DNA of 64,000 nt. It comes from Amphiscolops sp. MND2022 (Eukaryota). How positions within the stretch are numbered: the first letter of the stretch is position 1; every line of letters begins with the position of its first letter. Below the pieces are notes generated by a model. That model saw only the letters and a program-made list of their open reading frames with translations, ran no database searches and was not told the DNA's origin. Shown piece after piece: positions 13,422 to 55,028 of this stretch. The translations under genes and the position numbers were made by a program. The stretch covers positions 50,656,001 to 50,720,000 of the forward strand of contig OZ076409.1 of the NCBI GenBank assembly GCA_964187785.1. The letters run 5' to 3'.

Positions 13422-14021
13422 TCAACAAAAGCACGTGTCATGAACGTTATGATTAGATATTCCACCCCTTTGGCGTACATCATGTCGTTCATTCCTGCAG
13501 TTAGTCCTAGCGTTCGAGTTGCGCTGTTCTTCGGCATCCGTTTCCGGTCTCTCAGCCGGGACTTCCCATCCTCTTCTAGTCTCATGGACCGATCCGGCCA
13601 TCATGGCGTTTTGAATTTGAGGCAACACTTGACTATTTATAGCCTCATTGATGGCCCTTTGGATCTGTGAACTAACATTATTAAGCATATCGTCCATCTC
13701 TCTCGAGATCCTAGAATTTAATTCGCTTGACAACCTGTTTATCTCTGCAAGTGAGTTTGCTTCAGCTGAGTTTTGGCCCAAGTCGGCGCTTGTCCTGGGT
13801 TCATTGTTCCTACAATTAGAATATAGGCTTTCGTCCTCATTCTCTTGGTTGTCGCTTACAACACTATTCCTCCTCCTAGCTGAATTACTATCTAAACTCC
13901 TTTCTCTTTCAATCCCGTTAAAGTGATTGTTTCCTAGCATTATATCTAGGTTTTCAATATCCGAAAGGATCTCTAATCCTCTAGACTTTCTAGTCTTCTT
14001 CTGCTTTCTCGTTGTAGGCAT
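13422..14021 (-). CDS. Copy of Gag N-terminal 195 aa carried in the 3' LTR, ending in flanking DNA
   Basis: Identical to residues 1-195 of ORF 26806..28515, followed by TCFC* from host flank. Expression unknown. Confidence 0.5.
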   Translation of the reverse strand: MPTTRKQKKTRKSRGLEILSDIENLDIMLGNNHFNGIERERSLDSNSARRRNSVVSDNQENEDESLYSNCRNNEPRTSADLGQNSAEANSLAEINRLSSELNSRISREMDDMLNNVSSQIQRAINEAINSQVLPQIQNAMMAGSVHETRRGWEVPAERPETDAEEQRNSNARTNCRNERHDVRQRGGISNHNVHDTCFC

Positions 14022-15360
14022 TGAGACTAAACCGGGTTGAAGAATTAAATTAATCAGGTCCGGAAAACAGTAATTGTTAACAGATTGTTATCAAGTTGAT
14101 TGTGAGGAGCTTTTCGAAATTGTGTCTACTCAAAGGAAGTAGCTCCTATATATACTCCCTTGGGTGGGAAAAGCATGGTAGTAACTTTAAAAAATGTCAT
14201 AACTACATTCCTAAAGCACCTGATCAGATCATATACATTCAAACATCAAAGTGCCGCTGAATTGTAGTAGCAAGGTCACGCGGCCGTTTAAATTCCTGCT
14301 TTGATAGGATTGAGAGGCATTCAAATAGCACGCGTTACTTCAAACAACATCTACTATAATATTTGCACTGCTGGTATTTGGGGAATGTCAGCTATCCCGT
14401 GCCGGCACGTGCCCCAGTAGTAAGCTAAACAAACTTACATCAAATAACGTTACATGCATAATACATCTACAAATTGCATGTGTTAATTGACAAATGAGAC
14501 CGGACTGGTCTTTCGGGCAAGTATTTGAAGCACCAACACACAACTGGTGTTAATCATATCAACCGATCTGGAGGACTACATAACTGTTTGTAACACACTC
14601 ATTACTGTACATGTCATTTAGAATGCACAAAACAATCATATTGACCATCTGAGTAATAAATTGAATGGGTGGCCTAAATCGGCCATTATCCGGATAGGTA
14701 TAGCATCAGGGGAGGGAAATTAGGCAAATGGCCTTATTTGGCTAAGCATCAGGGGAAATGAAACAAAACACTAATTATCCAACGTGATCATTTAACAAAC
14801 ACAGAAACGTAATTAAGCTACTTATTAATACAGTATAGCAGCGTCCACATCATTATCTTTTCATTAGCAACTTATGGCCGAAACCGGCCGTTTGACTCAA
14901 GTCCCGTTTAACAAAGGCGGAATTCAGTCATGTGGCCTTAACCGGCCATTAATTAAATACAGCACAAGTATTGTTCAAATGGATGAATGTGATTGGTTAG
15001 CACGACTGCAGTAAGTTATATCGCCGAGAAGGGACGTTTTCGCACTTGAACACGTTTCCTTCTCGCGATTAACTTGCTCTCTTATTGTTTGCTATAGCAT
15101 CAATACAACTTCGCAATTTAATTCAGCTATTACAACAACGAACTGATTTGGCTAATCCCAAATCGTAATATTAACAGACTAATTTGAACATCCAATATAA
15201 GTGATCAAATAAAATAAATACAAACAAAATACATGATGTAAACGGTTTCTAAAGTTTTAGCAGTTTTATTCTTAAAAAGTTGGCAGTGTTCCGGGTATGA
15301 CTTCTTGGTTGTTGCTTGTTGTCGTAATCATAGTGCCGTCACAGGCGGCAGCCTGCGACA
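13436..15360 (-). repeat. 3' LTR (1925 bp)
   Basis: Direct repeat of 27930..29854. No differences seen in spot checks, and ORF-track translations in the two copies match. Confidence 0.96.
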
Positions 15361-16057
15361 CTGCGGGTGTAAGGAAAAGAAACGAACCTGCATTCAACCC
15401 GTTTTCGTAGGCTTCCCTTCTCAGCTTTGTTATGAATTCTGGCTCATCTCTCGGTGTAGATCTGTCCATGTACCAATCCACTCGCTGTTTCTTGATCGCA
15501 TCTACTGAGCGGCCACAGACCATACATCCGGTATAACGTGTTTCGCTCACATTCTCGTACGGCTTCGTGTTTTGAATGTGATATGACGCCCTGAATGCAG
15601 AGTCAGCTACTACTAGCGGGGTATCCATAGACGGTCCTCTCTCGTGAGGGGGCGGTGATAGAGGTGACTCCACGACAGGAAGTAGAGTTTTGCAGAGCTC
15701 TATCCGAGATTTCCCTATCTTCCTCGGGGGAGCATAACACATTTCTCTATCAAAATATTTGTGATCCAACTTCGGGGTCACGCCCATCTGCGTCTGCCTG
15801 GAACTTGGGCCAGCTTCTGTATCTTCTTCTTCTTCTTCGGGTAATTCTACAGTCATAATGCGGCCCCCTATTAGCATGGGGCTGGATATTACCTCTTTCT
15901 CGATCCTGGCCACCAGTTGTTCCGTATCAGTGGAATAGTCGGTTTCCCAATCCGAGGCTTCGCTCTCACTACTAGATATGTAGATGACAGATTCGTTAGA
16001 TTCGTCAGAATCATAATCCATGTCGAATAATTTCCTTGCCAGGTTGTACTTGCTCAT
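15272..16057 (-). CDS. Accessory sense ORF of unknown function (261 aa) overlapping the 3' LTR
   Basis: ATG start, acidic/Ser-rich N-terminus, CMVC motif. Last 89 nt lie in the LTR. AATAAA directly after the stop (15265..15270). C-terminal peptide conserved in the diverged LTR at 63368. Confidence 0.75.
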   Translation of the reverse strand: MSKYNLARKLFDMDYDSDESNESVIYISSSESEASDWETDYSTDTEQLVARIEKEVISSPMLIGGRIMTVELPEEEEEDTEAGPSSRQTQMGVTPKLDHKYFDREMCYAPPRKIGKSRIELCKTLLPVVESPLSPPPHERGPSMDTPLVVADSAFRASYHIQNTKPYENVSETRYTGCMVCGRSVDAIKKQRVDWYMDRSTPRDEPEFITKLRREAYENGLNAGSFLFLTPAVSQAAACDGTMITTTSNNQEVIPGTLPTF

Positions 16058-17133
16058 AATGAGTTTTTTAGCTATTTTGAAGCTTGGGGAGGCAACTAGT
16101 CAGAATCAAAGCTTGAGAAAGAATGAATTCAACAAATTTGAGAATTTAGCCGACTCGGGCCTTTTCCCGACAATTCGTTTTTGGCGGTTGAATCTTCGGT
16201 AAATTACCCTAATCCGACATAAACATTCCTGAATGGAATTTCATAATTAGTCGGCCACCTTTGATATACCGATGTTTACCCGTCATCAACACCATCAGCT
16301 TAAGAGGTGTGAACGACGCTTGAGCTGCTAGCCTCAATTCTCTCCATCTCAAGTGGGTAATTAACGGGTCGCTTGAAGGCTATTAACGACACGCGCCGTT
16401 AAATTCTTTCAACATGGCTTCAGCCAATCAGAGTTAAGCTCTGATAAAATGAAAAATTAAGTAATAAAATGGCGAAAATAATAAATCAAAATAATTCAAA
16501 ATGGCGGAAATAACAATTTGAGTAACTATAATAACGGAAGTCCTAATTAGGCTAACAAACAAAACGGAACGAGGTAATACAGTGAAATGGGGTAAACGGC
16601 CGTAATTGGCCAATAATTCCATGAGTTGTAAATAATGAAATGATCTTAGTACATTTCGCTGGCAGACTCCATGTACAGAATAAATATGTAAATAATCCCA
16701 TAATATTAGTCTGGTAATAATCTTCAGCCACGAACTCCAATCCTTCAATTCTTTATTTTGAATTCCAATTCAATTCCTTTTATTTTAATTGCACTTTCTC
16801 TTCCATATTCATTCGATCGGTCTCCATCTACAAACTACCCTTTCTGTCTCTAATCTCTCCCGTCAGTCATCTCTTCCGAGTATCCCTGTTTCTCCCTTTA
16901 AGCTGGGTCCGGCCAATTTCCTTCGCGGCAGCAACCCGATTGGAACACTTCCCTTTTAGTCTCAGCTCAGAATGTCTTCAACTGAAGGTTGGTTTGTTTC
17001 TTTTTGAACTCAAATTTAACTTGATCAGGGCTAAATTCGTTCACAAAATGCTTCCTGTTTTCATCAATAAACGTGTGATAACACGTTTCGTTCAAATTTT
17101 CAAACACTTCCGGAAGTTTTCTAATGCGGTAAA

Positions 17134-20100
17134 ATGGATTTTTTCCAAGGAAGCTCACCGCCAAATTTCATCTCATTCTGTTTAGAAAACCAGAATAATG
17201 ACGAATCACAGATTCGAAACACCACTTCTTCAAACAATCTTGCCGAAGTTCCTCAACGCCCGCTCCCGATTACCATGCCAAGGCCTAGATCCGATCTAAT
17301 TGCTCCGTCTTCTCTACCTTCATCCAACATCCTTGCTATGTCAACAGCAGCGGTAACAGGAGGAGCCCAAGATACAGCCACTCCCTCTCCTTTCAGTGTC
17401 GACAGTGATTTTGATGTCACGGCGTACGCTGATGAGAAAGTTTTGCTTCTCGAACGGGCCCAGGGACAGGAAGAGAGACAAATTGCCAAAAGTTCTGAAC
17501 TCGGGGAACAGGAGGTTGAAGAGAGTGTCCCAGAAGGTTCACTCACGGTTGGGAACGAAATCCGATCTTCTACCTTGCCCTTCCAAACAAGCACTCCAAC
17601 CAAAGATTTGCCCAGTGAGTCTGCAAGGCTGGATTTATCGCAACTAGAAGCCGGTCTCACAGTTGCTCCATCTACCCAGACGGAATTGCCAGAATTGTTG
17701 ACAACTCGCGGAAATACTACCAACATGTCAGCAGCATCATTCCTCCACCATGAGACTGACGAAAGTTCGTCTATATGTGATGCCCCCAAATTGCCGACTG
17801 GAGTCGCGGACATAGTATATTTAGACGACATAACAGGGACTGAGGAAGCTGGTGACACATCCAGTCAGGCAAGTGGACCAGCTCTATACAGTTTCCAACC
17901 AGTGGGAGGCGCAGCAGAAACTGCAGGGGAGTCATCAGTTGACACTCCTATTCCTCATCCGGATAACTTGCGTCCGTCAACATCAACGTCTGCAGAGCAA
18001 GGTTCTGGCATCAGGGAGCTCTCTGGTCGCAGCCGGGCTATTTTAAAACAATACTTCGATCAGGATGCTACTACCATCAACTTCCCCCTTGGCCATAGAA
18101 CGGTGGCTTTCACTGAGCCGCAAGTGTACCATCTTTTGAGGGTCCTTACAGATGAAACCTTGAAGATGTCTTTCACTGCCATGGAACAGATGGTGATCGG
18201 GGCAGTTCGTGGAGCGCCGGTTACTTCCAGTTCTCGAACTGGTCATTTCCGAAACAGGCCAAGAGCCCAAACTCCCGGACCTGGACTTCATAGTGATTCC
18301 GAGGGCAGTTCGCATTCTGAAAATTTCCCTGAGTCAGGAACTGATACGTCTGCCGGGTCAAGTTCGGAACAAGAAGATAGAGGACTGGACTCTTCCAACA
18401 ACACTGATAGCTCTGGGGAGATGGCTCTAATTTCACAGGCTTTTAAGGAGCCTTTCAGACCTGCTTCAACTTCCTGTGGGACTACTCAAGATGATCCCCC
18501 TCAAGCAGGTTTCGAATCAGCAGATCAGTCTAGTCTTGATGCTACCCTTTCCGAGTTACGAACTCAAACTTCTCCTGCTCCGCCCTTAGCTTCGAGTTCG
18601 GGTAAAGCGCCAAAACGTAAGCAACGGAAACAGACTCGAGGTGTCCCTATGAAAGAGGAGTTCTTCTCTAAAATCGGATGGACACGCTCGTTCATTTCTG
18701 GACCAGCAGACCCGCTCCATAATCCTTATATGGTATGGTGCCATATATGTAAAAAGAATCTTTCTGTGAAGACGAAGGGCACTTTGGAAATTCTGCGGCA
18801 CCACAGGACGGAGAAGCACCCCCGAAAAGATCAAAGATGGCGTTACGAGCACCTCAAGAGTGTTCACCCCGTGTCCGGAAAGGTGCAACATCGAGTGAGA
18901 GGCCGCAATGGGAAGATTCTCTCAGAGATTGAGTTGGCCAAGGAGATGCGCCACTTTATGCACGTTGAGTTGGTGGACATCGGAGAACGTTTCCCTTTCT
19001 ATGACGATTTCATAAAAGGAACAACCACCACACTCGTCACCCCTGAATCAAGAGCTAAGACACAGATCCAACTTATTGGGAACTTCATACAGCAGCACGG
19101 GGATATTGGAATGCTCCGCAAATTGTGGTCCCAAATAGGCTCTTTGACTAACTATCAGTCCAGCTACTGTGACTTCGATTGGGGTGAAGAAAGAATTTCG
19201 GTAAGTTCTCTATTGGGTTTGTACACTGCTTGTGGTAGGCCAAAACCTTCCAAACATTTCGTAATTCTCCTTTTCCTTTTCAGGCCATCTTCCAGCACAT
19301 CTTCAATTGTGCAATGAACGATTTAGCAAACCAGATTGCTACCACACAGCACTTTGCCATCGAATTTGAGGATCAGGGTGTGAACAGACTCATGTCTGTC
19401 AAATTCTGGAAAGACAACACCCTCTGCCGAGTCTACGTGTGTCGAAGTGGGCTTCCTTCCTCTGACCTTACTGGAGAGTTGGGGTCCCTCTCTCGACTCC
19501 TCTCAGTAGTATCCACTAAAGCCGATATAGTCGCCTGTTCCGGATGTCCTGTCGAGCTGATTCAGACTATCGACAACAATGTTTTCTTCCCCCGGGCTGT
19601 CCAGAGTTGCTTTCGCTTCGAGCATCTGCAGCTCCAGAAGATGATGCACAAGCCCACTTTCAGTGTGTTTGGCAGAATAGACTTCTTCTCTGTTCTGAAG
19701 TGCCTCGTAGTTTCACTTGGAGCAGCTTCCAGTGAGGATTGGGCCCTGCAATCCCCTGAACTGGCACGAGTTAGTATATTAAGTTCAAACATGAAGCGTA
19801 AAGGGTTAGGGGGTAGGTTCGGGCAAAAGACAATTCGGGTTCATTTAGGCTATCGATACCTGCAAACTGGACTTGCCGAGTTTACCCAACCTCTGTCGGG
19901 AACTTGTAAAACATTGGAAGGCGATCCGGCAGTACCTGACGTCCCATACTCCACACCAGGGAATGCAGGGGGTCCACAATCAAGTGCAGAGCTTCGAGTG
20001 GTCTCTCATCTGCGACTCCTTCTTCACCGTCAAGTTGGAGTTCTTCCAACGCATAATCAGTGATTGTGAGTATACCGCTACATATCCATATTGGTACTAT

Positions 20101-21378
20101 AAGACATTATCAGAATGATCCTTGATCCTTGATTCCTCGGGCCACTAGCGCAGTAGGCATATCGGTATGGGTTTATGTAGACGTTTTGTTCTTTTCATGG
20201 TCTTGTCCTTTGTATTTCCAGATGTCGCCAGTTTCGTTGTCAATCTGTTGGGCCGACGAGATGCAACATTTTTCCTCTGTGGAGAAGTCTGCCGATTCAT
20301 CTCCAAGTTATGTGCCAGATGTTACTTGCCGGAAACCATCCCTCTCGAGAATTCGTGGTTCCTGCTCCTCAATTTCAACGTGAGCGACGGGAAGTTCATC
20401 AGCGAGGAGGAGTTCCTTGTCCGACACCGGCTGACAACTCGGATAGCTACTGCCAGCAAACAGTGTGCCGATGTTGTCCATTTGAACAAGAAATCGGAGA
20501 AAGCCGCCATTGAGAAGACAGCTGCAGAGACAACCAGCAGTTTCGTCAAAGAAGGACTGCAGTTTATTCAGTACTTGGTCAAGCAGGTCCTCAACCAAGC
20601 CGGTCTGAGCTCCGAGGTGATCAAGGGGTTGGCCGCCTTTGATCCTTCCGTCCTCTTCAAGAGGCCGAGTGAGGTCGGACTTCGTCATTTCGAGGTATTG
20701 TACTCGACCTTCCAGCTTCGCTCCTGGGTCTCCGGTGAGAATGAGAACATCTGTCGAGATGAGTATTTGGCTTTGTTAGATCACCTGCGAGTCAATTATC
20801 CTCCAGATTTCGATTTCAATGAAAATTCCCCCGACCTGATAGACTTTCTGATGCAACTCGAGTTTTTTCAAACTCATGAGCACATTTTCCATCTTTTCAA
20901 GCTGTGCTGCTTGTGTTTGACAGAACGAAGTCTCCAATATCCCCCAGTATCTTTCGGGAGTGTTAACACTTCTGGACACCGAGGCCGTTTTGCTGACCTT
21001 ATAGAGCCCTGTCAGAGTTACCTTTCTTGCGTGCCTGACTCCATTCTACATTGTTGTTCTGACGCTAATTTAGAAAAGCTTTCAGCCCTCAGTTCTTCCT
21101 TCGAGCGTTCCGCTTTCTCCCCCGACTATGATCCATGGACCTTTGTGGATGAGTTCGGGAGGTCCAAAATTTACAAGAGCCTTCTTGCCTCCTATAAGGT
21201 CGTCACTGCTGTTTCTCCCCCTCGGGCTGTTCATCTGGCGACAGGAATTGCCTCCTCCGTGCCGGACGATTCTGCCGTAAAGGTGCCCTCCAAGAAGCAA
21301 AGGAAGCGAGCAGGTAGCAGCAGTTCTACAATTTCGTCCACTTCCAAGAAGGCTGTTCAAGGGTCCTCTAAAGACTAA
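17134..21378 (+). CDS. Antisense four-exon accessory gene (~1308 aa): disordered N-terminus, BED/hAT-type zinc finger, decayed hAT-transposase-like region
   Basis: Exons 17134..19200, 19284..19769, 19849..20065, 20222..21378. Introns GTAAGT..TTTTCAG, GTTAGT..CATTTAG and GTGAGT..TTTCCAG (phases 0, 0, 1) join four ORFs into one 3927-nt frame. Motif VWCHICKKNLSVKTKGTLEILRHHRTEKH. Confidence 0.85.
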
Positions 21379-21610
21379 ATGTACATATGTATTTATGTAC
21401 TTTCAGACTGTAAACTTTGTTCATTTCTCTGTTTCATATTTATTTTCATTTTGTTCTCTGTTGTCTTGATTTTCTGATCCCGTATTTATTTCCTTGTAAG
21501 GGATCATTCAAATGTCCCATTATTTATTCAAGAAATACTGCTGCATGGGACCGAAAAGATAAAAAGAATGAAAAGAAGAGAATTCCCATTTTCGGGAAGA
21601 AATTCAATTC

Positions 21611-24600
21611 TTAGTATCTGAAGTCTTCTGAGTAGTTTGGATTTGGATTAGGCCTGAGATTATATTTCCCTCCTCTAGGGCTCAGACTTTCATTTCTAGC
21701 ATCTTTTTCAGATATTTCGGGCACGATAATATAATCCCCTCTTTTCGGAGAATTTTGTGCATCGTTGTCATTCGATGAATTTCTTTCTGGAGAATTTTCA
21801 TTCCCGTTTGGTCCATTTGCCATATCCGGCAAAGATTTTTCTTGGGTTTTTGGGGAAACGGCCGGATTCGGCCAATCAAATTCTTCGTTTCTAATAGCTC
21901 CAGTAGCTTCATTTCTTTTAGTGACGTCATCATTTAAGCGGTCATTCCGGCTGTGTGCCGTATTGTCATTATTCGTTTCTCGCGTGATTATATAATCCGC
22001 GTCACTCTCGTTTGCGTCATTGTTGATTTGTTCCGTACTCGGCTGTTCGCCGTTCGGTGAGTTGGCCGGAATAGGCTCGCTGCCTCGTGTGTCTATCTGT
22101 TCACCAAAGTTTGTTTCCCACGTTATTACATACAAGTCGTCTTGCGGAATGATTATTTCGTCATCCGGCTGTAGACGCTGTTCTCGGAAATTGTCCTCAA
22201 GTGGCTGATTTGGAACAAACTTTTTGAGACGAATTCGATGCAATATCTGCGTTTTATTTGTATTAAGCCTGCGGACAATGTAATTCTCGTTAGGTAAGGT
22301 CTTCTGGACTATAAATGGTCCAACCCAACGATAATCTTTGAATGGAATTTTTGATCCTTGATGATCCGCTTTCGGCTGTAATACAAAACAGTAATCGCCC
22401 TCTTTGAGTGGGGCGGCTTTTGCTTTTCGGTCATAATACTCCTTATATTTGATATATGACTGCATGATGTTCTGCTTAGTTTTGTCAATAAGGAGTTTTG
22501 TCCGGTTTTGGATTTCTTCTGCGAATTCAGTAGTCGGATGGATTTGCTCGTTTGGATTTGTTCCAAGCTTATGATCCAAGATGTTGTATGGGATTCTTCC
22601 ATGGAACACTCTTGTCGGTTCACATCCGATACTGGCATGGTAACTAGTATTGTGATTCAGAACTGCTAATGGCAAATATTTGTGCCATTGTCGGCGATAT
22701 TCTCCACATGCCATTTTCAAGTTTGTTTTCAATGAGGCATGTGTGCGCTCCAATTTCCCGATAGTTTGCGGGTGCTTTGTCGTTGCACATTTTAGGGTGA
22801 TTCCTAAAATTTGGGTAATTTCTGCAATAATCGTGGAAGTGAAGGCAGTTCCTTTGTCTGTAATGAGCGTTGTCGGTAAGTAGGAATGTTTGGTCATAAT
22901 GTCAATGAGTGCTTTGGCTACATTGATCGCTGATGCGTCCGTGAGAGGGTAAGCGAATAAATATCTAGAGAAAACATCAATTGCCGTTAGGACATTTTCA
23001 TACCCTCCGCTTGGGGGAAGATTCGGCAATAGGTCAATTTGCATGGCGTCTTCAGGTCCAAGGTCCCATTCGGGCAAATTTAGTAGTTCAGGCGTGATCG
23101 TTGCATTAGGGACTCTTTTGTCTCTGGCGCATTGCTCACACCCTTCTACCCACTTTTTGACATGTTTTGCCATGTTGGGATAATAATACCTTTGTCTGAT
23201 TTCCTGCAACATTTTTGAAATCCCGGGATGTTTATGCGCTGTCCCGTGAAGGGAGTGGAGCAGTTCCCGAAGTAGGTGTTGCGGGAGCAAAATTTGATGG
23301 TATTTAACATTCCCTGTTTCATCAAAATATTGCCGTGTTAGGATTTCGTCCTTTAGTACAATTCGTTCCAGATTATTTGCATAGTGTCTATATCGAGCGT
23401 CCTGTTGCAGTATGTTTTCTGAGTAGTCTTCGTGAAGGAGTTTTGCCTTCAATTGTTGTAATACTGCATCCTTGGATTGCTCGATAATTATCTGGTTTGT
23501 TTTCCTCAATCGGTCTTGTATTTCAGGTTGTTGTTTGGTTAAGTTGGTGGAAAGAGTTTGTATTGTAACTGTAGGGTCTTCGATTACAGGATTGTTCCTG
23601 ATTGCTTCTTTCCTCGCCCAATATTGTTCTTCGGTCTCGTCGTCGTCATTGGTGTAGAAGATTTGTTCTTCCTGTGAGACTCCTGCTGATTGGACGTTTA
23701 TTTCTATTGGTAGCGTTTGTACATCTTCTCGGATTTTCATTACTAATTTGTCCTTTGGGTCTGCTTCCAGTCGGGACAAGTAATCCGCTGCCGTATTCTG
23801 TGCTCCTGGGATGTGTGCAATGACAAAATTGAACTGAATTACATAGTCGCATGCGTTCCACAGAGCTGGGGGTACGATTTTCGTCTGAAAGAATCTCGTT
23901 ACGGCTTTGTTGTCGGTTAGAATTATGACCGGTTTCGGTGCTCCCCAAAAAATATGCCCAAATTCTTTGAATGCGAAATAAATCGCACGAAATTCTTTTG
24001 CATAAATTGACATTTTTATCTGGGCTGGGGTGAAGGTTTTTGAACCATAAGCGACCGGTGCATATGATTTGCGGATTGACGTGAATTTCTGACTCGGATC
24101 ATCTTCAATGAGTACTGCGTATCCTGCAGCTCCAAAGCTTGCATCTGTCATGAGTGCAATCTGCTTGTTGGGAATGGGTTGTTGTAAGGCTAAGTCGCAA
24201 CATTTGTCCAGAGCTCGGTTGATTTCCTCAAATTGCTGTACCAATTCTTTTGATACTAGGACTTTTTCGTCACTTTTCAGCATCTTGTAGAATGGGGCAA
24301 GGCGTTCGGACAGTCTTGGAACGTAGTTTCGGTAGTAGTTCAGGAAACCCAAATATCTTTGCAATGCCTTTTTCGACTTTGGAAATTTGGTTTTTTCTAG
24401 AAAATTCTGAACGTTCTGTCGTTGAGGTTTGACGCCTTGTGGAGTAATCGTTCGTCCAAGGAAATCAATTTCACGGGCACCAAAATGACACTTGTGCATC
24501 GTCAATTTAAGGCCTGCTTTCTGAATGCATTTGAAAGTTGCTCTTAGGTTAGCAATGAGATGGTCGGCGTCGTTGGCGGCGATGCCGATATCGTCCACAT

Positions 24601-26815
24601 ACTGGGCGCACTGATCCGCTTTGATGACTTTGTCGAGGTATTCCCTCATGAAACTCGAGAATGCGGATAGTGACCGGCTAAGGCCTTGTGCCAAGCGTCT
24701 GTAGGCGAATGTGCGACTGGCAAAATTGAAAGCCAACATTTCGATTGAGCGTTGGTCGGCCATTGGTAGGCAGTGGTATGCCTGCGAACAGTCTAATTTG
24801 CAGAACAGTTTTTTGCCTGCCAGGTGTTGGGCAGCATCAACTAGTGTGCTGACAGGATGATTATTGTTTATATAATCATCAGAAATCAGGTTGTTGATTT
24901 TTCTCAGGTCGACTAAAAGTCGCAGTTTCCCATTTGGTTTCTTTTGGGCGAATATTGGGCTTGCATACTTTGAGAACGGTAGAGTGGTGATGATGCCATA
25001 TTTGTGTAACATGGCTAATTCGACGAGGATGTCCTCCTTTAGATTGATAGGAGCTGGGAGACTTTGACTATAGGCTGGGGAATCGTCCTTAGGCGTCAGT
25101 TTCACCTTAAATTCCTCATTCATGCCTATATCGAATCGGTGTCTTGCGAAGATATCGTGGAATTCCACTAACAGTTCCTCTATTTTCTCCTTCTCTTCAG
25201 GAGTAAGGGTGGAATCTTTCCAATCGAAGTTTTCCAAGAATTTTGCACGTGATTCTTCATCTTTGGTGGGGTCGAGTGTCTCCAGTTCCTGTAAGGCCTG
25301 TAATTCTCGGAGGATTCGTTTCTGTATCGGTGTGTGTTCCTCAGGGTTTCCAGGATTTTCTGGAGTTGGGAACCAATAGTTTTCAGAATCTTGTAGATTT
25401 TTGTTGGTCTTGATGAGACTGCTGACGTAATGGGCCGCCTGCTCTTGGTCGTTTTGCAAAAGATGCCAGGTTGATGCCGGGTCTACCGGTTTAACATGTT
25501 TCATTTGTTCTGGCGTCATGACTGAGAAATTGGCAATATGGAGTCCCTTTTTGAGTTTGTAAGGGTGGTCTGTGAAATTGTTCACTGGTATCAATATATT
25601 GCCCTCATTCAGAGTGACCAAAGCTGGGCAAAATGTGATGTCGCCTTCTTCGTGTAGGAGGTCGCTCGGTTGCAAGATTCCGGTGACAGCATTCTCAGGG
25701 TACAACAGGGAATTGGTCCTAATTAGGACTTTATCATTTGGCGGAATGGTTATCTCGGTAGGGTTGAGAATTGGTTCTAACACGTTTGAGTATTTGTGAT
25801 CAGCTGTTTTGAGCTGCATTGAGAAGAACGGGAAATTCAGTATGCCTTGTCTCATGTCCAGAACTGTGTGGTTTCGTTGAAGGAACATTAGGCCGATAAT
25901 CGGACCTGTCAGGTGTTCCATGACTATAAAAATCTCATGAAACTCAATGTCGCCAACTTCAAATTTAAGTTCTATTGTGCTTTTGGGCGTTTCCAGTTGC
26001 CCATTAGCGACCATGATTTGGAAATTCGGAGGCGGACCTTCCCGGATAACAGATTGTGGAGATAAGAGTCGAATTTTCCGGAGGTCCATTTCTGGAATTG
26101 CACTGGACAATGCTCCAGTGTCAATGAGTCCATCTATGGTCAGCTCCCCAAAGTCCATGGGGAAGTACAACATGCGCTTCTTGCATTTGAGATTGATGTT
26201 GGTCGACAAGGGTATACAGTCTGGTTCACCGTCTCTGGTGATTAGGACGTTCTGGAATTGCTTCTCGTCTAATAGTGATTGTGGTGTAGGTTCGGAGTTG
26301 TCCTCATGGGCCTCGGTCCCCAATGGGTTCGGGAACACTGGGTGGTTCGTACCATCATTCATCTGCCAGTTTTCAACTAGTGCTCTGGTCTTTTTATTGT
26401 GGGTAATTGGAGGGTTCTCATGGACTGTTCTATTGTAGTGCTCGATGTCATCTAGGACATATTGGAATTGTAGTAGTTCCTGGTTGTAGATCTCTGTGTC
26501 CCAATAGGGATCTCTGCCGTAATCTGGATCTATGTAGGTAGGATTGTAATTGTCAACCAGGGGAATGGGCCTGAATCGGCTATTGAAAGCAGATGTATAG
26601 TCAGGGTCCCATACAGGAATTGGTTTTTGGAACAAATGAGTGTTATTGTATGTAATGATGGTAGCTTTTTCCATTTGTTGCTGCCAGACAACAGAGGGAT
26701 AGCCCATCAATTGTTGATTGTATTGGTGGAAAGTTTGCGTTGGAGGGTCCGATCTGATGTATTGTCGGACAGATATCAGTTCGTTGTATTGGAGTCGTGG
26801 CGAAGTTAGTTTTTT
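21611..26815 (-). CDS. pol: Pol polyprotein: protease, dUTPase-like segment, RT, RNase H, integrase
   Basis: LIDTGA (protease); QYVDD (RT); TDAS..E..TDN..ADYLSR (RNase H); H-H-CEQC zinc finger; IDL / TDKG / LER (DDE); VGPF motif. Frame is open up to 26818 and overlaps the end of gag in the -1 frame. Confidence 0.96.
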   Translation of the reverse strand, partial: KKLTSPRLQYNELISVRQYIRSDPPTQTFHQYNQQLMGYPSVVWQQQMEKATIITYNNTHLFQKPIPVWDPDYTSAFNSRFRPIPLVDNYNPTYIDPDYGRDPYWDTEIYNQELLQFQYVLDDIEHYNRTVHENPPITHNKKTRALVENWQMNDGTNHPVFPNPLGTEAHEDNSEPTPQSLLDEKQFQNVLITRDGEPDCIPLSTNINLKCKKRMLYFPMDFGELTIDGLIDTGALSSAIPEMDLRKIRLLSPQSVIREGPPPNFQIMVANGQLETPKSTIELKFEVGDIEFHEIFIVMEHLTGPIIGLMFLQRNHTVLDMRQGILNFPFFSMQLKTADHKYSNVLEPILNPTEITIPPNDKVLIRTNSLLYPENAVTGILQPSDLLHEEGDITFCPALVTLNEGNILIPVNNFTDHPYKLKKGLHIANFSVMTPEQMKHVKPVDPASTWHLLQNDQEQAAHYVSSLIKTNKNLQDSENYWFPTPENPGNPEEHTPIQKRILRELQALQELETLDPTKDEESRAKFLENFDWKDSTLTPEEKEKIEELLVEFHDIFARHRFDIGMNEEFKVKLTPKDDSPAYSQSLPAPINLKEDILVELAMLHKYGIITTLPFSKYASPIFAQKKPNGKLRLLVDLRKINNLISDDYINNNHPVSTLVDAAQHLAGKKLFCKLDCSQAYHCLPMADQRSIEMLAFNFASRTFAYRRLAQGLSRSLSAFSSFMREYLDKVIKADQCAQYVDDIGIAANDADHLIANLRATFKCIQKAGLKLTMHKCHFGAREIDFLGRTITPQGVKPQRQNVQNFLEKTKFPKSKKALQRYLGFLNYYRNYVPRLSERLAPFYKMLKSDEKVLVSKELVQQFEEINRALDKCCDLALQQPIPNKQIALMTDASFGAAGYAVLIEDDPSQKFTSIRKSYAPVAYGSKTFTPAQIKMSIYAKEFRAIYFAFKEFGHIFWGAPKPVIILTDNKAVTRFFQTKIVPPALWNACDYVIQFNFVIAHIPGAQNTAADYLSRLEADPKDKLVMKIREDVQTLPIEINVQSAGVSQEEQIFYTNDDDETEEQYWARKEAIRNNPVIEDPTVTIQTLSTNLTKQQPEIQDRLRKTNQIIIEQSKDAVLQQLKAKLLHEDYSENILQQDARYRHYANNLERIVLKDEILTRQYFDETGNVKYHQILLPQHLLRELLHSLHGTAHKHPGISKMLQEIRQRYYYPNMAKHVKKWVEGCEQCARDKRVPNATITPELLNLPEWDLGPEDAMQIDLLPNLPPSGGYENVLTAIDVFSRYLFAYPLTDASAINVAKALIDIMTKHSYLPTTLITDKGTAFTSTIIAEITQILGITLKCATTKHPQTIGKLERTHASLKTNLKMACGEYRRQWHKYLPLAVLNHNTSYHASIGCEPTRVFHGRIPYNILDHKLGTNPNEQIHPTTEFAEEIQNRTKLLIDKTKQNIMQSYIKYKEYYDRKAKAAPLKEGDYCFVLQPKADHQGSKIPFKDYRWVGPFIVQKTLPNENYIVRRLNTNKTQILHRIRLKKFVPNQPLEDNFREQRLQPDDEIIIPQDDLYVITWETNFGEQIDTRGSEPIPANSPNGEQPSTEQINNDANESDADYIITRETNNDNTAHSRNDRLNDDVTKRNEATGAIRNEEFDWPNPAVSPKTQEKSLPDMANGPNGNENSPERNSSNDNDAQNSPKRGDYIIVPEISEKDARNESLSPRGGKYNLRPNPNPNYSEDFRY

Positions 26816-28515
26816 GACTCATCGTTGGAAGATGAGGCCTGTGAGTTGGAAGATGTTGACTTATGTTGTGGTTTCTGCGCTTTTGAATTGGGTTTTCCGT
26901 CATTAGCGTCGTCTGGTCTGGTGCGTTTGGGTTTGAGATGCGCACCAGCGCCTTGCCAGCATCTTTCTTCCGGGTGGTTCTTTTTACCACAAGTGCCACA
27001 CTCCGGATACGTCTTTTTCTGAGTCTGTTTGCCTTGTTGGGCATCTTTTTCCTTTTTCTTCTTCAACTTTTCGCAGTCCTTGACCATATGGCCCTTTTCC
27101 TTGCAATAGTTGCAGGTTATATCTGACATTTGCCCAGTAGTTAGAGGAGTCTTGGATTTTGTCGAGGAGGTCATTGTGGCCATTGGTAGGTCGTCTGATT
27201 CCTCTAGTGCATTGAGTTCTAATTCTCTCTCCAAATGAGCAACTATTTCGTCATAAGAGCCATTTTCGAGTCTGGCCATGTTGACAGACCGCTTCAGTTT
27301 TGGTGGCAGCTTTGCGTAGAGCAAGCTGTCAATCATTTTCTGGGCGTGATCCCCAAATGCTTTTTCTGCCCCTTGATTTAGTTCTTCAAGGAAATCTGGT
27401 AATTTCATCGTATTGGGATCAAAGACCAGGCGGTGCCATTTATGCTTGGCAGTCGCCTGTGATTCGGGCTTGACGTATTTTCGTCTGAAGATGATTAATA
27501 CGTCTTCTAAAGTTTGTCTGTTGCTGGAGCTGATGTTTCTGAAGGTTTGAAGAGCATTCTTTCTCAATAAAGAGTGGAAGTGATTGATCTTCATTTGCTC
27601 AGTCATCTCTGGCTGCATCTTGATCATCGTATGGAACAGGTCCTCAAACAGCTCGAATTTTTCACTCTTGCCATCAAAAGTCATTGTGTTTGAGTTGACC
27701 GGGCGTATAGTGAGTTGTTGGGCTGTCGGCCTATTCTGCATCGTTGTCAAGACGTCTGCCAATCGAGTAATAGGGTCGGTTTGGGCAGCCGGAGCATTTC
27801 TCTCTTGCGCTGGGATCGTCGTGTCAAGGTTGATGTCCTCATAGGACCTGTCGAGATGGTTTCTGGATGAGACTCGTCCCGTGAGAAACTCGGGAACTTG
27901 AGGTGGAGATTCGTTGTCTCCTGTCACCATGTCATGAACGTTATGATTAGATATTCCACCCCTTTGGCGTACATCATGTCGTTCATTCCTGCAGTTAGTC
28001 CTAGCGTTCGAGTTGCGCTGTTCTTCGGCATCCGTTTCCGGTCTCTCAGCCGGGACTTCCCATCCTCTTCTAGTCTCATGGACCGATCCGGCCATCATGG
28101 CGTTTTGAATTTGAGGCAACACTTGACTATTTATAGCCTCATTGATGGCCCTTTGGATCTGTGAACTAACATTATTAAGCATATCGTCCATCTCTCTCGA
28201 GATCCTAGAATTTAATTCGCTTGACAACCTGTTTATCTCTGCAAGTGAGTTTGCTTCAGCTGAGTTTTGGCCCAAGTCGGCGCTTGTCCTGGGTTCATTG
28301 TTCCTACAATTAGAATATAGGCTTTCGTCCTCATTCTCTTGGTTGTCGCTTACAACACTATTCCTCCTCCTAGCTGAATTACTATCTAAACTCCTTTCTC
28401 TTTCAATCCCGTTAAAGTGATTGTTTCCTAGCATTATATCTAGGTTTTCAATATCCGAAAGGATCTCTAATCCTCTAGACTTTCTAGTCTTCTTCTGCTT
28501 TCTCGTTGTAGGCAT
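26806..28515 (-). CDS. gag: Gag (569 aa) with two CCHC zinc knuckles, starting inside the 5' LTR
   Basis: CNYCKEKGHMVKDC and CGTCGKKNHPEERC. Capsid-like FDGKSEKFELFEDLF region. Confidence 0.93.
   Translation of the reverse strand: MPTTRKQKKTRKSRGLEILSDIENLDIMLGNNHFNGIERERSLDSNSARRRNSVVSDNQENEDESLYSNCRNNEPRTSADLGQNSAEANSLAEINRLSSELNSRISREMDDMLNNVSSQIQRAINEAINSQVLPQIQNAMMAGSVHETRRGWEVPAERPETDAEEQRNSNARTNCRNERHDVRQRGGISNHNVHDMVTGDNESPPQVPEFLTGRVSSRNHLDRSYEDINLDTTIPAQERNAPAAQTDPITRLADVLTTMQNRPTAQQLTIRPVNSNTMTFDGKSEKFELFEDLFHTMIKMQPEMTEQMKINHFHSLLRKNALQTFRNISSSNRQTLEDVLIIFRRKYVKPESQATAKHKWHRLVFDPNTMKLPDFLEELNQGAEKAFGDHAQKMIDSLLYAKLPPKLKRSVNMARLENGSYDEIVAHLERELELNALEESDDLPMATMTSSTKSKTPLTTGQMSDITCNYCKEKGHMVKDCEKLKKKKEKDAQQGKQTQKKTYPECGTCGKKNHPEERCWQGAGAHLKPKRTRPDDANDGKPNSKAQKPQHKSTSSNSQASSSNDESKN
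26809..26815 (-). promoter_or_regulatory. -1 ribosomal frameshift slippery heptamer A_AAA_AAC
   Basis: Minus strand reads TCA AAA AAC TAA at the gag stop. The pol frame GTC AAA AAA CTA is -1 relative to gag. Confidence 0.85.
27912..27929 (-). promoter_or_regulatory. Primer-binding site, tRNA identity uncertain
   Basis: TGGTGACAGGAGACAACG directly after the LTR-terminal CA. Confidence 0.7.
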
Positions 28516-29854
28516 TGAGACTAAACCGGGTTGAAGAATTAAATTAATCAGGTCCGGAAAACAGTAATTGTTAACAGATTGTTATCAAGTTGATTGTGAG
28601 GAGCTTTTCGAAATTGTGTCTACTCAAAGGAAGTAGCTCCTATATATACTCCCTTGGGTGGGAAAAGCATGGTAGTAACTTTAAAAAATGTCATAACTAC
28701 ATTCCTAAAGCACCTGATCAGATCATATACATTCAAACATCAAAGTGCCGCTGAATTGTAGTAGCAAGGTCACGCGGCCGTTTAAATTCCTGCTTTGATA
28801 GGATTGAGAGGCATTCAAATAGCACGCGTTACTTCAAACAACATCTACTATAATATTTGCACTGCTGGTATTTGGGGAATGTCAGCTATCCCGTGCCGGC
28901 ACGTGCCCCAGTAGTAAGCTAAACAAACTTACATCAAATAACGTTACATGCATAATACATCTACAAATTGCATGTGTTAATTGACAAATGAGACCGGACT
29001 GGTCTTTCGGGCAAGTATTTGAAGCACCAACACACAACTGGTGTTAATCATATCAACCGATCTGGAGGACTACATAACTGTTTGTAACACACTCATTACT
29101 GTACATGTCATTTAGAATGCACAAAACAATCATATTGACCATCTGAGTAATAAATTGAATGGGTGGCCTAAATCGGCCATTATCCGGATAGGTATAGCAT
29201 CAGGGGAGGGAAATTAGGCAAATGGCCTTATTTGGCTAAGCATCAGGGGAAATGAAACAAAACACTAATTATCCAACGTGATCATTTAACAAACACAGAA
29301 ACGTAATTAAGCTACTTATTAATACAGTATAGCAGCGTCCACATCATTATCTTTTCATTAGCAACTTATGGCCGAAACCGGCCGTTTGACTCAAGTCCCG
29401 TTTAACAAAGGCGGAATTCAGTCATGTGGCCTTAACCGGCCATTAATTAAATACAGCACAAGTATTGTTCAAATGGATGAATGTGATTGGTTAGCACGAC
29501 TGCAGTAAGTTATATCGCCGAGAAGGGACGTTTTCGCACTTGAACACGTTTCCTTCTCGCGATTAACTTGCTCTCTTATTGTTTGCTATAGCATCAATAC
29601 AACTTCGCAATTTAATTCAGCTATTACAACAACGAACTGATTTGGCTAATCCCAAATCGTAATATTAACAGACTAATTTGAACATCCAATATAAGTGATC
29701 AAATAAAATAAATACAAACAAAATACATGATGTAAACGGTTTCTAAAGTTTTAGCAGTTTTATTCTTAAAAAGTTGGCAGTGTTCCGGGTATGACTTCTT
29801 GGTTGTTGCTTGTTGTCGTAATCATAGTGCCGTCACAGGCGGCAGCCTGCGACA
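27930..29854 (-). repeat. 5' LTR (1925 bp)
   Basis: Minus strand reads TGTCGCAGG...CATGACA and is followed by the PBS. Confidence 0.96.
28641..28648 (-). promoter_or_regulatory. Putative LTR TATA box
   Basis: GGGAG-TATATATA-GGAG about 125 nt upstream of the gag ATG. Confidence 0.5.
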
Positions 29855-30915
29855 GCACGGTACATCCGAATTTTGGACGTTGACTCCGAAGTGATTTGCA
29901 TTATACTACGGAAGAAGCTGCAGCTTCTTGCTGACGATCGAAATTATTCACGACGATCGAAATTATTACGACGATCGAAATTATTACGACACATACGAAT
30001 TTCGTCATTATATCCGAAGTAAAATTCGGATTTTATTTATGTCTGCAAATTGGGGGAGACCAAATGGTCCCCACTTTAAGATTTTTCCTCAGTATGCGAC
30101 GTTTTTCAAACGATTATTTAATCAAAGTGCCCCTTTTGATTTTTAGGAGGAATAAAGCATTATGTGAGAATAGAGGGCCACGTTCGGTTTTTTCGGCACA
30201 ATGAGACTAACCGAAGATCTAAAAAAAGTTGGTGGAAAAATTTTCCCAATTTCTGGTTTTTGAGTAAAACACTTTCGAAGTTCAAAGAGCGGCTTCATTG
30301 ATTAGTTTCCGGTCCTGTGGAACGGACGAAAGTTTTCGGAGAAATTGTGGAAATGATTTACGGTATTTTACGGCTCTGTGAGATTTTCCTTCAAAATATA
30401 TTCATTCGGTCGAAGTTAAATGTTTTCGGCTCGAAAAAAAAAACGTTTTGCGAGCTTGAAGTTCCAAATTTGGCACAATAAGATTTTTTTCTAGGAAAAA
30501 ACGTTCCGAAAAAAATAAGTACCAGAAAAAGTTTTTTTTTGTTGTTTCCATTGGAGAAAAAGTAAAGTGGTTTTCGAGTTTTATGCGTATTCCTTCGGGT
30601 ATTTTACGGCACTGAGAAAGTGATAAACTTATAACAATGGTGTCCTTTGCATTTTTAAGAAACTTGGTTTTTGGAATTTTGAGCGGGGCCCGGCTTCTTT
30701 GTTCAAATCGCAACAGAGGAATTGTATTAAATGCAATTAGCTGAAAGTCTTATCCATGAGCAAGTCCCATGGTCATTGAACAAGACGAGATGAAATACTG
30801 AACTTCGGGACGTGATAATTTGGTCGGTAGCGTGAACGCCAGTGGTATAATGGGTATGCTGATCGAGGCCCAACTGGCCACTGTTTTTGCTTGTTTTCAT
30901 TCACATTCAAGTATT

Positions 30916-31080
30916 TATTCTTTAGATTGATAGTTGGGCATTTCCACATTTTCATCAACTTTTGCATTTAAACCATTTTCGATGCATTTCACAATTATAT
31001 ATTTTCACAATCATTTGAAATGGTTCAAATGCAAAAATTGATGAAAACGTGGAAATGCCCAACAATCAATCTAAAGAATA
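30916..31080. repeat. Fold-back element, ~60-bp inverted arms
   Basis: TATTCTTTAGATTGATAGTTGGGCATTTCCAC... / ...GTGGAAATGCCCAACAATCAATCTAAAGAATA. Confidence 0.8.
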
Positions 31081-31264
31081 TATTCCTTATTCTAATATAT
31101 TCCTTATTCAGAACGATTATCGTCCAGTGAATTCTCATTTTTGTTCATTTGATTTGTATACTACATGATCACAAAGTAATTCAAGTTTTCAAATCAAATC
31201 ATTCACATTTGTTAGTTTTTCCTCTGAAACTCTTGGCAAGATTGCAACATTTTAAAAAAAAACA

Positions 31265-31770
31265 ATTCAATGTAGCAACCTCAACAAGTTTATGGTCCAT
31301 TGAACAGTGGGGATCAGCTGTATATACTACATTTTCAATGACACTCAATTTTCTGATAGTCATCGTGTTAAAATAGCATTAAATGTGATCATTATTACGT
31401 CATGTCTGAACAGGGTTGAAAATAGCATCAGTATTGACTTCAAAAGGAAAGGTCTGCAAAAGCCAGAAGGGGGAAAGGCGACGCGCCTTGGGTACTTTAG
31501 ACTGACAGTACTGATTTGTTTACTTTTTATCTAGTGGATGAGACATCAAACAGTGAACTAAAACAGCACAATGGACCGATGGTCCGCTGGACTCCAGAAG
31601 TAATACTAGCAGCGCTGTGATTGTTCAATAGTTTGGTTGGACCACGCGTCAACCAGACTACAGCGCTGTACTAGTTGAAAGCATTTCGTTTATCTCTCTA
31701 GTACTGTACTTGTTTAATTGCAGTTCATGGTAGTTCAAACTGCATAAAATATCACAAGTAGTACAGTTCC
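31265..31770 (+). repeat. ~500-bp dispersed repeat, copy 1
   Basis: Clearly similar to 36005..36510 and more distantly to 62925..63090. Internal CTAGCAGCGCTG...CAGCGCTGTACTAG inverted repeat. Confidence 0.8.
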
Positions 31771-35920: not shown

Positions 35921-36004
35921 TCAGTATTTTTTTAAGAGTATATTGTTCAGAACAATAGGTGCAACAACTCGTCAGAACTTCGGCAAAAATGGTTGAAATC
36001 AAAT

Positions 36005-36510
36005 AAATGTAGCAACCTCATTAAGATTATGGTGCATTGAACAATGAGGATCGTTTTTAACATTTGTTTATACTACATTTTCCATGACACTCAATTTCTT
36101 GATAGTCATCGTTTCATAAAAGCATTAATATGTCGTCATTATTACGTCATGTCTGAATAGGTTTAAAAATAGCATCAGTATGAACTTCAAAAGGAAAGGT
36201 CTGGAAACTACAGAAGGTGGGAAAGCAGTGCCTTGTTACTTTAGACTGACAGTACTGTTTTTTACCTTTTATCTAGTGAATGTGACATCAAACAGCGAAA
36301 TAAAACAGCATAGGTGACCGACGGTCCGTTTGATTACAGCAGTAGTACTAGCAGCGCTGTGATTGTTCAATAGTTTGGTTTGACCACGCGTTAACCAGAC
36401 TTCAGCGCTGTACTGGTTGAACGCGTTTCCTTTATCTCGCTAGTACTGTACTTGTTTAATTGCAGTTCATTGTTGTTTAAACTGCATAAAATAGCACAAG
36501 TAGTTCAGTT
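36005..36510 (+). repeat. ~500-bp dispersed repeat, copy 2
   Basis: Direct, diverged copy of 31265..31770. Confidence 0.8.
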
Positions 36511-37720
36511 CCATAAAAGACCAGATAGTGACCTTATTTAGGTTCAAAATATTCAAGTAGTTGTTTTACTTATAGTACCAGCGCCAAAATTTTTCAATGT
36601 GTCTATAGTGTCACCACTTCATTTTTTGACATTTTGCAACAGAAAGGATGTTCAAATGTTTCCAAAGGTCCCCTTCGATATTTTTCGACACAATGAGGCT
36701 TAAAAATTCTCATTTTTCGTCTGATACTAGGTTTTCTCAATAGATATGCACCTATAATTCTTGTTCAATACTATCAAATTTTTGGCGTAAAGCGCTATAT
36801 CCGAGTTTTTGACGTTCTACTTCTATCCGAACTGTATTGCGTTTTACTAGGGAGGAAGTTCGTGATCAAGCGCTCCCATTTGTTCCAGCACGCTATATCG
36901 AACCTTTGACGTTATATCCGAAGTAATTTGCGTTCTACTGAGAAGGAGGCGTATGATCAAAGAAAGCTCTTGCGTTTATCTCAGCACGCTATATCTGAAC
37001 TTCTAAAGCGTTTTCCGAGCACGAAATGCAAACTGTTTTCTGAATGTTTCATTAAAAACGTTTCTTTAAAAACGTCTTAGTTGTGTGCTGTTTTCGGTCT
37101 CAAGAAAGTATTGGAAAAACCTAGCATAATTCTTCCGAATCGAGGTACTAAAACTTGAAACATTTTGACCCTATTCGATACCACGCTGTCAACAACTAAA
37201 GCAAATTATGAAATAAATCACCTTTTTGTATTAATTTCCAAACTCTGAAATCATTTTAATATTGAGTTTGAGTCTGAAAACCAATTAAGAGATACAATTA
37301 TGTTCGGACAATGTTATCTACCCCCCCAGGTACACCTTGTTGAGAATTTCCAACAAACCCCCCCCTCTTAACACGAAAGCACATTTTGTTCTTGCATAAA
37401 ATTATTTCACTAATGACAGAGTTTTATATGAATGTAAATACTTAGAGGATTGTCTCTACAACTGTTTCGACCCTTGAGGCAAAAAATACCATGATGTTTT
37501 GATAATATTGTCCAAAATAGCAAAAATTCGCGTTTTGAACAAGATAAATTGTATAAAAAGGCCCCTATTTCAACGCAAATCGTCTCCGTGATAAAATCTA
37601 ATGAGCAACTTTTAACTGACAGTCAATGTAATGGATAGGATTATGTCGACATCAATTGGTTTATTGGACCAAAATTTTAACGCAAACGACGTTGAGATAA
37701 TGGTATTTGAACTTTGGGTG

Positions 37721-55013: not shown

Positions 55014-55028
55014 TGGCGCAGTCAGCCA
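55014..55028 (+). promoter_or_regulatory. Primer-binding site, probably tRNA-Ser
   Basis: TGGCGCAGTCAGCC directly after the 5' LTR. Confidence 0.7.

Follow-up and report, generated by a model that had tools for sequence, protein, structure and literature searches.

Complex retroviruses characteristically carry regulatory accessory genes. In HIV and mouse mammary tumor virus, the open reading frames (ORFs) of nef and sag, respectively, cross the boundary of the 3' long terminal repeat (LTR) into its U3 region, and the nef frame contains the polypurine tract. In foamy viruses, an accessory ORF reaches into the 3' LTR, transcription also starts at an internal promoter, and Tas activates both promoters (PMC3185757). 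Among invertebrate LTR retrotransposons, few accessory genes have been characterized (CERV, sORF1/2, and the rotifer ORF3s), the rotifer elements being known to carry extra ORFs as well (PMC5408684). Here we describe an ORF of 261 amino acids (aa) in a 64,000-nt stretch of DNA from Amphiscolops sp. MND2022 (GenBank assembly GCA_964187785.1, contig OZ076409.1, positions 50,656,001 to 50,720,000; hereafter, the window, with coordinates counted from its first base). The ORF belongs to an intact 16,419-bp Ty3/gypsy LTR retrotransposon on the minus strand and runs into the 3' LTR of that element. Almost certainly, it is a genuine accessory gene under selection that belongs to a large Ty3/gypsy clade.

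The locus is like foamy virus tas/bel1 and bet in that accessory ORFs lie before the 3' LTR, one of them entering it. Unlike a foamy virus, it belongs to a gypsy element without env, no sequence or fold match was found, and its internal promoter and transactivation are predictions. A preliminary description of this DNA, made from its letters alone, had likened the ORF to nef and sag. The likeness holds for position, that is, for the crossing of the LTR boundary, but does not extend to family or membrane features: there is no family match, no myristoylation Gly, no transmembrane (TM) anchor, and no purine tract. We tentatively suggest that the layout may resemble that of foamy virus accessory genes rather than the way Nef and Sag work. 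The CERV protein of Cer1, a gypsy-type element of Caenorhabditis elegans, is similar as a non-env, phosphoregulated, Cys-rich accessory protein predicted to multimerize; it differs in being 517 aa long, spliced from exons shared with gag, and endowed with a G-like domain, whereas here a single-frame 3' gene of 261 aa carries a tract resembling a SUMO-interacting motif (SIM) (PMC10309623). The sORF1 and sORF2 of the Drosophila MDG1 group are also small accessory ORFs, and sORF1 is subnuclear, has a predicted helix-turn-helix, and is expressed from its own short polyadenylated RNA, but the two lie upstream of gag, encode about 110 and 70 aa, and in the case of sORF2 give a transmembrane protein (PMC11952523). 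Plant 3' ORFs (Grande gene23, RIRE2, Retand ORF4, and the Athila env-like ORF) are likewise conserved between pol and the 3' LTR, some being nuclear with their own promoter; however, those in sense orientation resemble env and have TM segments, those that are nuclear run antisense, and overlap with the LTR is not described in the part of the source available (PMC7264820).

In the literature searched (subscription papers, repeat databases, and supplements lay outside it), we met neither this protein family nor the combination of LTR overlap, a hairpin junction without a polypurine tract, a gag gene whose start lies within the LTR, and an antisense gene placed head-to-head with the ORF. Searched by term, PMC13524379 gave no passage that deals with acoels or with third ORFs of unknown kind. 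That LTR retrotransposons can carry extra ORFs is already known, and what appears to be new within that literature is this protein family and this combination of features.

The accessory ORF and its relatives

Because gag and pol are on the minus strand, the ORF is in the sense orientation and the left LTR (13436-15360) is the 3' LTR. The preliminary description had reported a sense ORF with its last 29 or so codons in the LTR and AATAAA right after the stop, all of which is borne out: an ATG-initiated frame extends from 16057 to 15272 (minus strand), its last 89 nt including the stop (about 29.7 codons) lie within the 3' LTR, and AATAAA begins one base beyond the stop. The LTR has candidate promoters at offsets 866 and about 1207, from which we infer that the overlapped part is U3. 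The other five frames across the ORF contain 10-18 stops each, and no such ORF arose in 1000 shuffles of the 2.1-kb region.

Searches with the ORF recovered 190 homologous proteins among 620 candidates (single sequence), 377 among 3,418 candidates (profile), and 244 among representatives at 50% identity (exhaustive search), and the best 120 homologue clusters sum to 1,739 members. None of the homologues listed has a name or a Pfam domain. The ORF had been called an orphan, and this stands insofar as no named family matches it, although hundreds of unnamed homologues exist. It has no Pfam match above cut-off, nor do 81 members of the family at E<=0.01. Pfam includes the Nef, Sag, Tas/Bet, and Rev families, and no match to these profiles was obtained with the query at E<=0.5 or with the 81 members at E<=0.01. 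A profile of the 81 sequences found no PDB sequence at E<=10, a profile search of viral contigs found no relative among 49 candidates, and phage records gave none. A likeness to the piggyBac N-terminal region (best ESM Atlas scores 0.78 and 0.76) was within the range of shuffled sequences and was dismissed.

The position between pol and the 3' LTR, together with the LTR overlap, might suggest an Env, a fusogen of the sORF2 type, or a Nef/Sag-like membrane protein that acts in spread or immune modulation. As the preliminary description had noted, however, the protein has no TM segment and is not env-like. Hydropathy gave no TM or signal-like segment (a dedicated signal-peptide predictor was not applied): the best 19-residue Kyte-Doolittle window of the query scores 1.17, and the same measure reaches 1.6 in two of 68 relatives. 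Residue 2 is variable rather than Gly, the 81 members lack Pfam matches to such families at E<=0.01, and an ORF of 261 aa without a TM segment is far from the sORF2/FAST-like pattern of about 70 aa with a central TM helix and a polybasic tail. A membrane role is therefore extremely unlikely.

From 420 family proteins we retained 199 that are full length (235-300 aa), and from these 68 representatives sharing <85% identity, 42 of them close (>=45% identity to the query) and 26 distant (26-35%). All 68 keep the start region, length, and C-terminal end of the ORF, and full-length relatives as a whole range from 25% to 99% identity. Disruption of the ORF in other young copies, the outcome that the preliminary description raised as speaking against a gene, is not what we found. 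In six sampled clusters (526 members, of which 90 are listed), 76 of the 90 listed members are at least 255 aa long and 14 are short; in the nearest cluster, 13 of the 15 listed are 260-262 aa, two of these 13 being about 99% like the query. The clade has been very successful, and within it this protein family, which has no named relative, has long been maintained, down to about 25% identity.

The sole DNA-level relative found is L001, a 1.3-kb metagenome contig with 31% protein identity, and DNA-level comparisons therefore involve two copies, the linkage to elements being otherwise by register at the protein level. Over 56 gap-free codons before the LTR, the two copies differ at 39 third, 32 first, and 23 second positions, as expected for selection on the protein; of 16 shared residues just upstream of the LTR, four use the same codon and 12 different ones. 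Full-length conservation, this codon-position bias, and a fixed register in the LTR (see below) together uphold the claim of a selected accessory gene. The contrary explanation is a nonfunctional frame that has stayed open through chance, recent copying, or its overlap with cis-elements. In its favor, nucleic-acid constraint accounts for the peptide that is most invariant, most homologues may stem from few host assemblies, and broken copies are common: the exhaustive search returned many fragments, and its length filter undercounts broken copies. All the same, chance or passive retention seems barely credible given full-length frames down to 25-36% identity with conserved Cys, His, Gly, and Arg, the codon-position bias, and the absence of such an ORF from all 1000 shuffles.

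The invariant peptide deserves separate comment. The first 26 nt of the LTR (15335-15360, minus strand), read as VSQAAACDG, are identical in L001 at 26 of 26 positions although the proteins are only 31% alike, and the codons are the same at nine of nine places, versus the four of 16 just upstream. The ACDG motif, which had been put forward as conserved in the protein, thus reflects largely nucleic-acid constraint. On the sense strand, the tip can fold into a hairpin that has a 4-nt loop and contains a G-U pair; the fold has z -2.4 when 36 nt are considered and is not significant over 81 nt (z -0.75). In AlphaFold, residues 228-239, which lead into the tip, have a predicted local distance difference test score (pLDDT) <50 despite their conservation. 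Across 235 proteins, the residue before SQxAACDG is Val in 208, Leu in 26, Met in one, and Ile in none, whereas Ile occurs two to 27 times in five other Val-rich columns. Val, Leu, and Met have codons ending in TG, the first two bases of the LTR, and Ile has none, so the LTR boundary lies in a fixed register throughout the family, which ties the unnamed homologues to LTRs. The LTR-tip motif had no matches in viral contigs or prokaryotic genomes.

Polypurine tracts (PPTs) are purine runs with rare pyrimidines at most (PMC3185511). In neither the window (15361-15380) nor L001 (1170-1189) does such a tract directly precede the 3' LTR, the last 20 nt being pyrimidine rich; in both, the best purine 12-mer is 62-63 nt away. 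The second gypsy element of the window does have a purine tract. One explanation is that the accessory protein is a replication or integration cofactor that binds the LTR-tip hairpin to set plus-strand priming without a PPT, or that tethers the integration complex to SUMO-rich chromatin. The missing tract in both copies, its presence in the other gypsy element, and the invariant register of the tip are consistent with this. However, the tip could be conserved simply because integrase attaches there or because RNase H needs it as a signal, with no extra protein required; the pattern comes from two DNA copies; and it is not evident how a protein with its own transcript would enter particles. We consider a cofactor role improbable. 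Independent of what the protein does, a young, intact element without a PPT and with an invariant LTR-tip hairpin makes PPT-less plus-strand priming testable.

The accessory protein and its motifs

The N-terminal half of the protein is disordered and acidic: residues 1-100 include 24 D/E and 21 S/T, and this part of the full-length structure model mostly has pLDDT <50. The features noted in the preliminary description (ARKLF, an acidic Ser-rich tract, SP sites, and the CxxC formed by C178 and C181) are all present, but they differ in how widely they are shared. RKLF (residues 8-11; 16025-16036, minus strand) fits the RxL cyclin-docking consensus and is limited to one clade, [RK]xLF occurring in 34 of 42 close representatives and only one of 26 distant ones. 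The proposed docking motif is thus present, and common among close relatives, without belonging to the core of the family.

Such a motif could point to a cell-cycle modulator that docks cyclins and serves as a CDK substrate or inhibitor, like hubs of the E1A/E7 type. A TP[KM] site in 41 of 42 close relatives agrees with this, as do SP motifs in both groups ([ST]PxS[PL] in 36 of 42 close and 23 of 26 distant representatives) and the disordered, motif-rich layout with a CxxC. On the other hand, strict RxLF is found in just 23 of 42 close relatives, and distant relatives keep the C-terminal domain and the acidic tract while almost never carrying [RK]xLF (one of 26) or TP[KM] (two of 26). No LxCxE was seen in alignments of the relatives inspected by eye. 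Cell-cycle modulation as the main role therefore strikes us as very unlikely.

More widespread is a phospho-SIM-like motif (residues 24-33; 15959-15988, minus strand), in which a VIYI core precedes a Ser/acidic tract. The query has a four-residue core with at least three V/I/L and an acidic/Ser flank, which is how phospho-SIMs and their CK2 logic are defined (PMC12751080). Among close representatives, 38 of 42 have a forward core, as do 10 of the 26 distant ones; another 10 of these 26 have a reversed, acid-first core, and none has both forms. Altogether, 58 of 68 carry the core in either orientation, against 2.1% of shuffles, and a stricter pattern is found in 54 of 68 against 0.2%. IE2 of human cytomegalovirus (HCMV) offers a precedent: a hydrophobic SIM core is followed by CK2-type serines and acids, and phosphorylation raises both SUMO affinity and transactivation (10.1101/655282). 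The likeness to HCMV IE2 is at the level of the motif, proteins and virus being unrelated.

The C-terminal half contains a small module of conserved Cys and His residues and helices. This half includes C122, which is followed by a Pro/Ser-Pro motif of the SPxSP type (residues 122-136; 15650-15694, minus strand), and the CxxC (C178, C181; 15515-15526, minus strand). With conservation in 74 (C122), 78 (H160), 79 (C178), and 78 (C181) of 81 aligned sequences, these four residues constitute a candidate zinc site. Beyond them lies a helical hairpin (residues 185-224; 15386-15505, minus strand) of two confidently predicted helices (185-200 and 207-223, AlphaFold pLDDT 84-96) carrying conserved Y196, E205, R213-R214, and A216-xxx-G220-xxx-G224. 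In the same alignment, A216 is kept in 79 sequences, G220 in 74, and G224 in 75, and positions 213 and 214 are R or K in 80 and 78, respectively. The basic patch is modest (mostly two to four K/R per eight residues).

The hairpin is also the predicted homodimer interface. A model of two copies of residues 109-261 scored 0.49, versus 0.01 for the best of three controls. Of solved pairs, 21 of 30 attain the mark used for this score, as against none of 23 single chains (17 of 29 and none of 30, respectively, for eukaryotes). At least 33% of contacts recur between runs, and the predicted interface lands on the conserved A216/G220/G224 helix even though the model used no alignment. These predictions, made at low fold confidence, lend support to a possible dimer of the C-terminal module. 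With a model whose predicted template-modeling score (pTM) is only 0.42, Foldseek gave no match at E<=0.001 in PDB or BFVD, and the best VIA result (Z 5.0 over 46 residues, root-mean-square deviation 2.6) was to generic helical hairpins. A fold hit to murine adenovirus E1A (E 2.9) was set aside as noise.

Expression and proposed function

A conserved block upstream of the ORF (16093-16131, minus strand) lies 67 nt before the ATG and is the best-kept noncoding stretch between the window and L001. It holds an initiator (Inr)-like TCATTC (+1 at 16124) and, at +28, AGTTG, resembling a downstream promoter element (DPE), both judged against the consensus letters of these elements; alternatively, it may be a branch point with a 3' splice or trans-splice acceptor. 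Exact Inr+DPE-like pairs number eight in 128 kb (both strands), and 0.009 are expected per 150 nt. The DPE lies at +28 to +32 and is used by insect retrotransposons (PMC4748587). As an acceptor, the block is weak (37 of 151 YAG sites score equally well). A YAG at the junction between the internal region and the LTR was ruled out as an acceptor because L001 has GAG there. The 5' LTR contributes a GTAAGT donor-like site at 28932 and candidate promoters, namely, an Inr/DPE-like pair at 28989 (LTR offset 866) and a TATA-like sequence at offset about 1207. In one acoel, 30.2% of genes are trans-spliced (PMC9911081), and trans-splicing would be a third route to the mRNA if the host uses it; the GC content and LTR abundance given in that source would be compatible with an acoel host. 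Overall, the ORF probably has its own short mRNA, produced via an internal promoter or by cis- or trans-splicing. That mRNA plausibly ends at the AATAAA in U3 (15265-15270, minus strand; LTR offset 91), which is followed by a U/GU-rich tract and past which transcription of the full-length RNA has to continue. In L001, no AATAAA occupies this place, and the nearest substitute is ATTAAA some 15 nt beyond it, where the contig ends.

Several other features of this region were recorded. KIAKK is encoded in frame just before the start Met (16058-16085, minus strand) and is kept in close and distant relatives with N-terminal read-through, so the stretch is either an A-rich element of the 5' untranslated region or part of a longer N terminus. 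We did not adopt the extension, since each lineage has its own local Met, with one relative, P0340, intermediate. CGGCC and ACGGCCG motifs are enriched in the LTR (14022-15270) and in the intergenic region (16058-17133), CGGCC at densities of 5.6/kb (about ten-fold) and 3.7/kb (seven-fold), respectively, versus 0.5/kb in the flanks, in a post hoc count not corrected for GC content. The intergenic region also contains several GCCAAT boxes.

In our tentative proposal, which we put somewhat short of an even chance, the protein would work in the nucleus, engage SUMO, and regulate transcription of the element that encodes it, either as a transactivator or as an anti-silencing factor. The analogies behind this proposal are the foamy virus layout and the motif logic of HCMV IE2. 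A selected, non-membrane protein with a SIM-like arm and a probably dimeric Cys/His module, encoded by a gene at the 3' end, is most likely a nuclear regulator of its own element. A subgenomic mRNA would arise from the Inr/DPE-type promoter or by splicing to the upstream block and would terminate at the AATAAA in U3. The protein would dimerize via the A-xxx-G-xxx-G helix, the conserved Arg pair and the putative zinc site may contact nucleic acid, and the CK2-type phospho-SIM and acidic tract may bind SUMO-modified chromatin or transcription factors at element promoters, so that the protein would activate or de-silence its own element family. In the close clade alone, the RxL-like motif and TPK site may add control by cell-cycle kinases. 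If the protein does read SUMO in this manner, it would offer direct access to the means by which retrotransposons of animals oppose silencing by the host.

It is important to note the points that weigh against this proposal. The SIM and Inr/DPE patterns were chosen post hoc, after the alignments had been viewed, 10 of 68 representatives fail the SIM test, and an acidic Ser-rich tract with hydrophobic residues would also fit a plain activation domain. The Inr-DPE-like spacing is +29 in L001, off by one relative to the window, and CGGCC is absent from the 554 nt upstream of the ORF in that contig. Regarding the dimer, the mark is reached by just one of seven eukaryotic pairs without an older solved relative, the chains have low pLDDT (44-46), and a zinc ligand falls outside the calibration of the score. 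Lastly, the pTM 0.42 model matched no known DNA-binding fold.

The main rival to SUMO-linked regulation is a Rev/CERV-like RNA-handling factor, in which a dimeric Arg-bearing helical hairpin would bind element RNA (perhaps at the LTR-tip hairpin) and license export of the full-length RNA or read-through of poly(A) signals before R. Full-length RNA must indeed pass four AATAAA hexamers, three soon after the pol stop (21444-21528, minus strand) and the one in U3, and it carries the GTAAGT donor-like site. Positions 213 and 214 are nearly always R or K, the G-U pair lies in the sense-strand tip hairpin, and CERV of Cer1 is a multimerizing, Cys-rich nuclear export factor (PMC10309623). Against this, the basic patch is modest, AATAAA is frequent in AT-rich DNA, sequence and fold searches connected the protein with neither Rev nor CERV, and RNA handling alone leaves the conserved SIM-like tract unexplained. 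We regard an RNA-handling role as unlikely, although it is the rival to be taken most seriously.

A bolder form of the SUMO proposal, which is speculative and rather unlikely as a whole, would place the element in an undescribed clade of "complex" gypsy elements, foamy-like but without env. There, a dimeric zinc/helical protein that is expressed from an internal promoter and reads SUMO would recognize its own element and lift SUMO-dependent silencing. The LTR-tip hairpin could be the recognized site and could also replace the missing PPT, and the partner would be the antisense gene with introns that faces the ORF head-to-head, its product descending from a protein of a DNA transposon. If this were true, it would constitute an anti-silencing module of an animal retrotransposon and would help to explain >1,000 near-identical pol copies.

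Element structure and surroundings

The element has the structure expected of Ty3/gypsy. Two direct LTRs of 1,925 bp, which begin with TG and end with CA, occupy 13436-15360 (3' LTR) and 27930-29854 (5' LTR) on the minus strand and are 100% identical in a self-comparison of the window; the 5-bp target-site duplication GCACG is found at 13431-13435 (plus strand) and 29855-29859. A primer-binding-site-like TGG... stretch (27918-27929, minus strand) adjoins the 5' LTR. The pol frame (1735 aa; 21611-26818, minus strand) has protease, reverse transcriptase (RT), RNase H, and integrase in the Ty3/gypsy order according to Pfam positions, and its best PDB sequence match is Ty3 Gag-Pol (E 2e-47). Ahead of the protease is a long N-terminal stretch with its own Met codons. 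The gag frame (569 aa with a zinc knuckle; 26806-28515, minus strand) differs from that of pol and overlaps it by 13 nt (26806-26818). It begins 586 nt inside the 5' LTR (27930-28515; copy 13436-14021) and reads through the primer-binding site, and the 3' LTR consequently also holds a 199-aa frame of the gag start. The RT region has one cluster of 1,547 members at 98% identity and another of 850 at 97%, indicating that the family is large and was recently active. Clusters of the accessory ORF are far more diverse, which hints at faster evolution of the ORF.

Also inside the element is an apparently intron-containing antisense gene (17134-21378, plus strand), head-to-head with the accessory ORF and 1.08 kb from it. 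It has GT-AG intron-like breaks near 19201-19283, 19770-19848, and 20066-20221, and because these would be antisense to the element, they would survive reverse transcription. Its product has a long Ser/Thr-rich N terminus, and its match to the BED zinc finger (zf-BED) is weak, E=0.16 falling short of the cut-off. By eye it resembles hAT transposases, an impression that we treat as an assumption rather than a result.

Elsewhere in the window, the second Ty3/gypsy element (54999-60272, plus strand) has a single gag-pol frame of 1757 aa and a canonical purine tract followed by TG at 60418. Its paired LTR was not seen, the self-comparison filter having hidden matches within 54-62 kb. A tandem array (51651 to about 53500) consists of about 80 copies of a 22-nt unit that are about 80% alike, and pieces of Tc1/mariner-like transposase were recognized by eye at 51-602, 46480-47028, and 47874-48461. 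Finally, a 520-bp repeat pair with 84% identity (31259-31770 and 35996-36512) and three short inverted repeats (30913-31083, 40709-40848, and 42440-42662) are possibly old LTRs or miniature inverted-repeat transposable elements.

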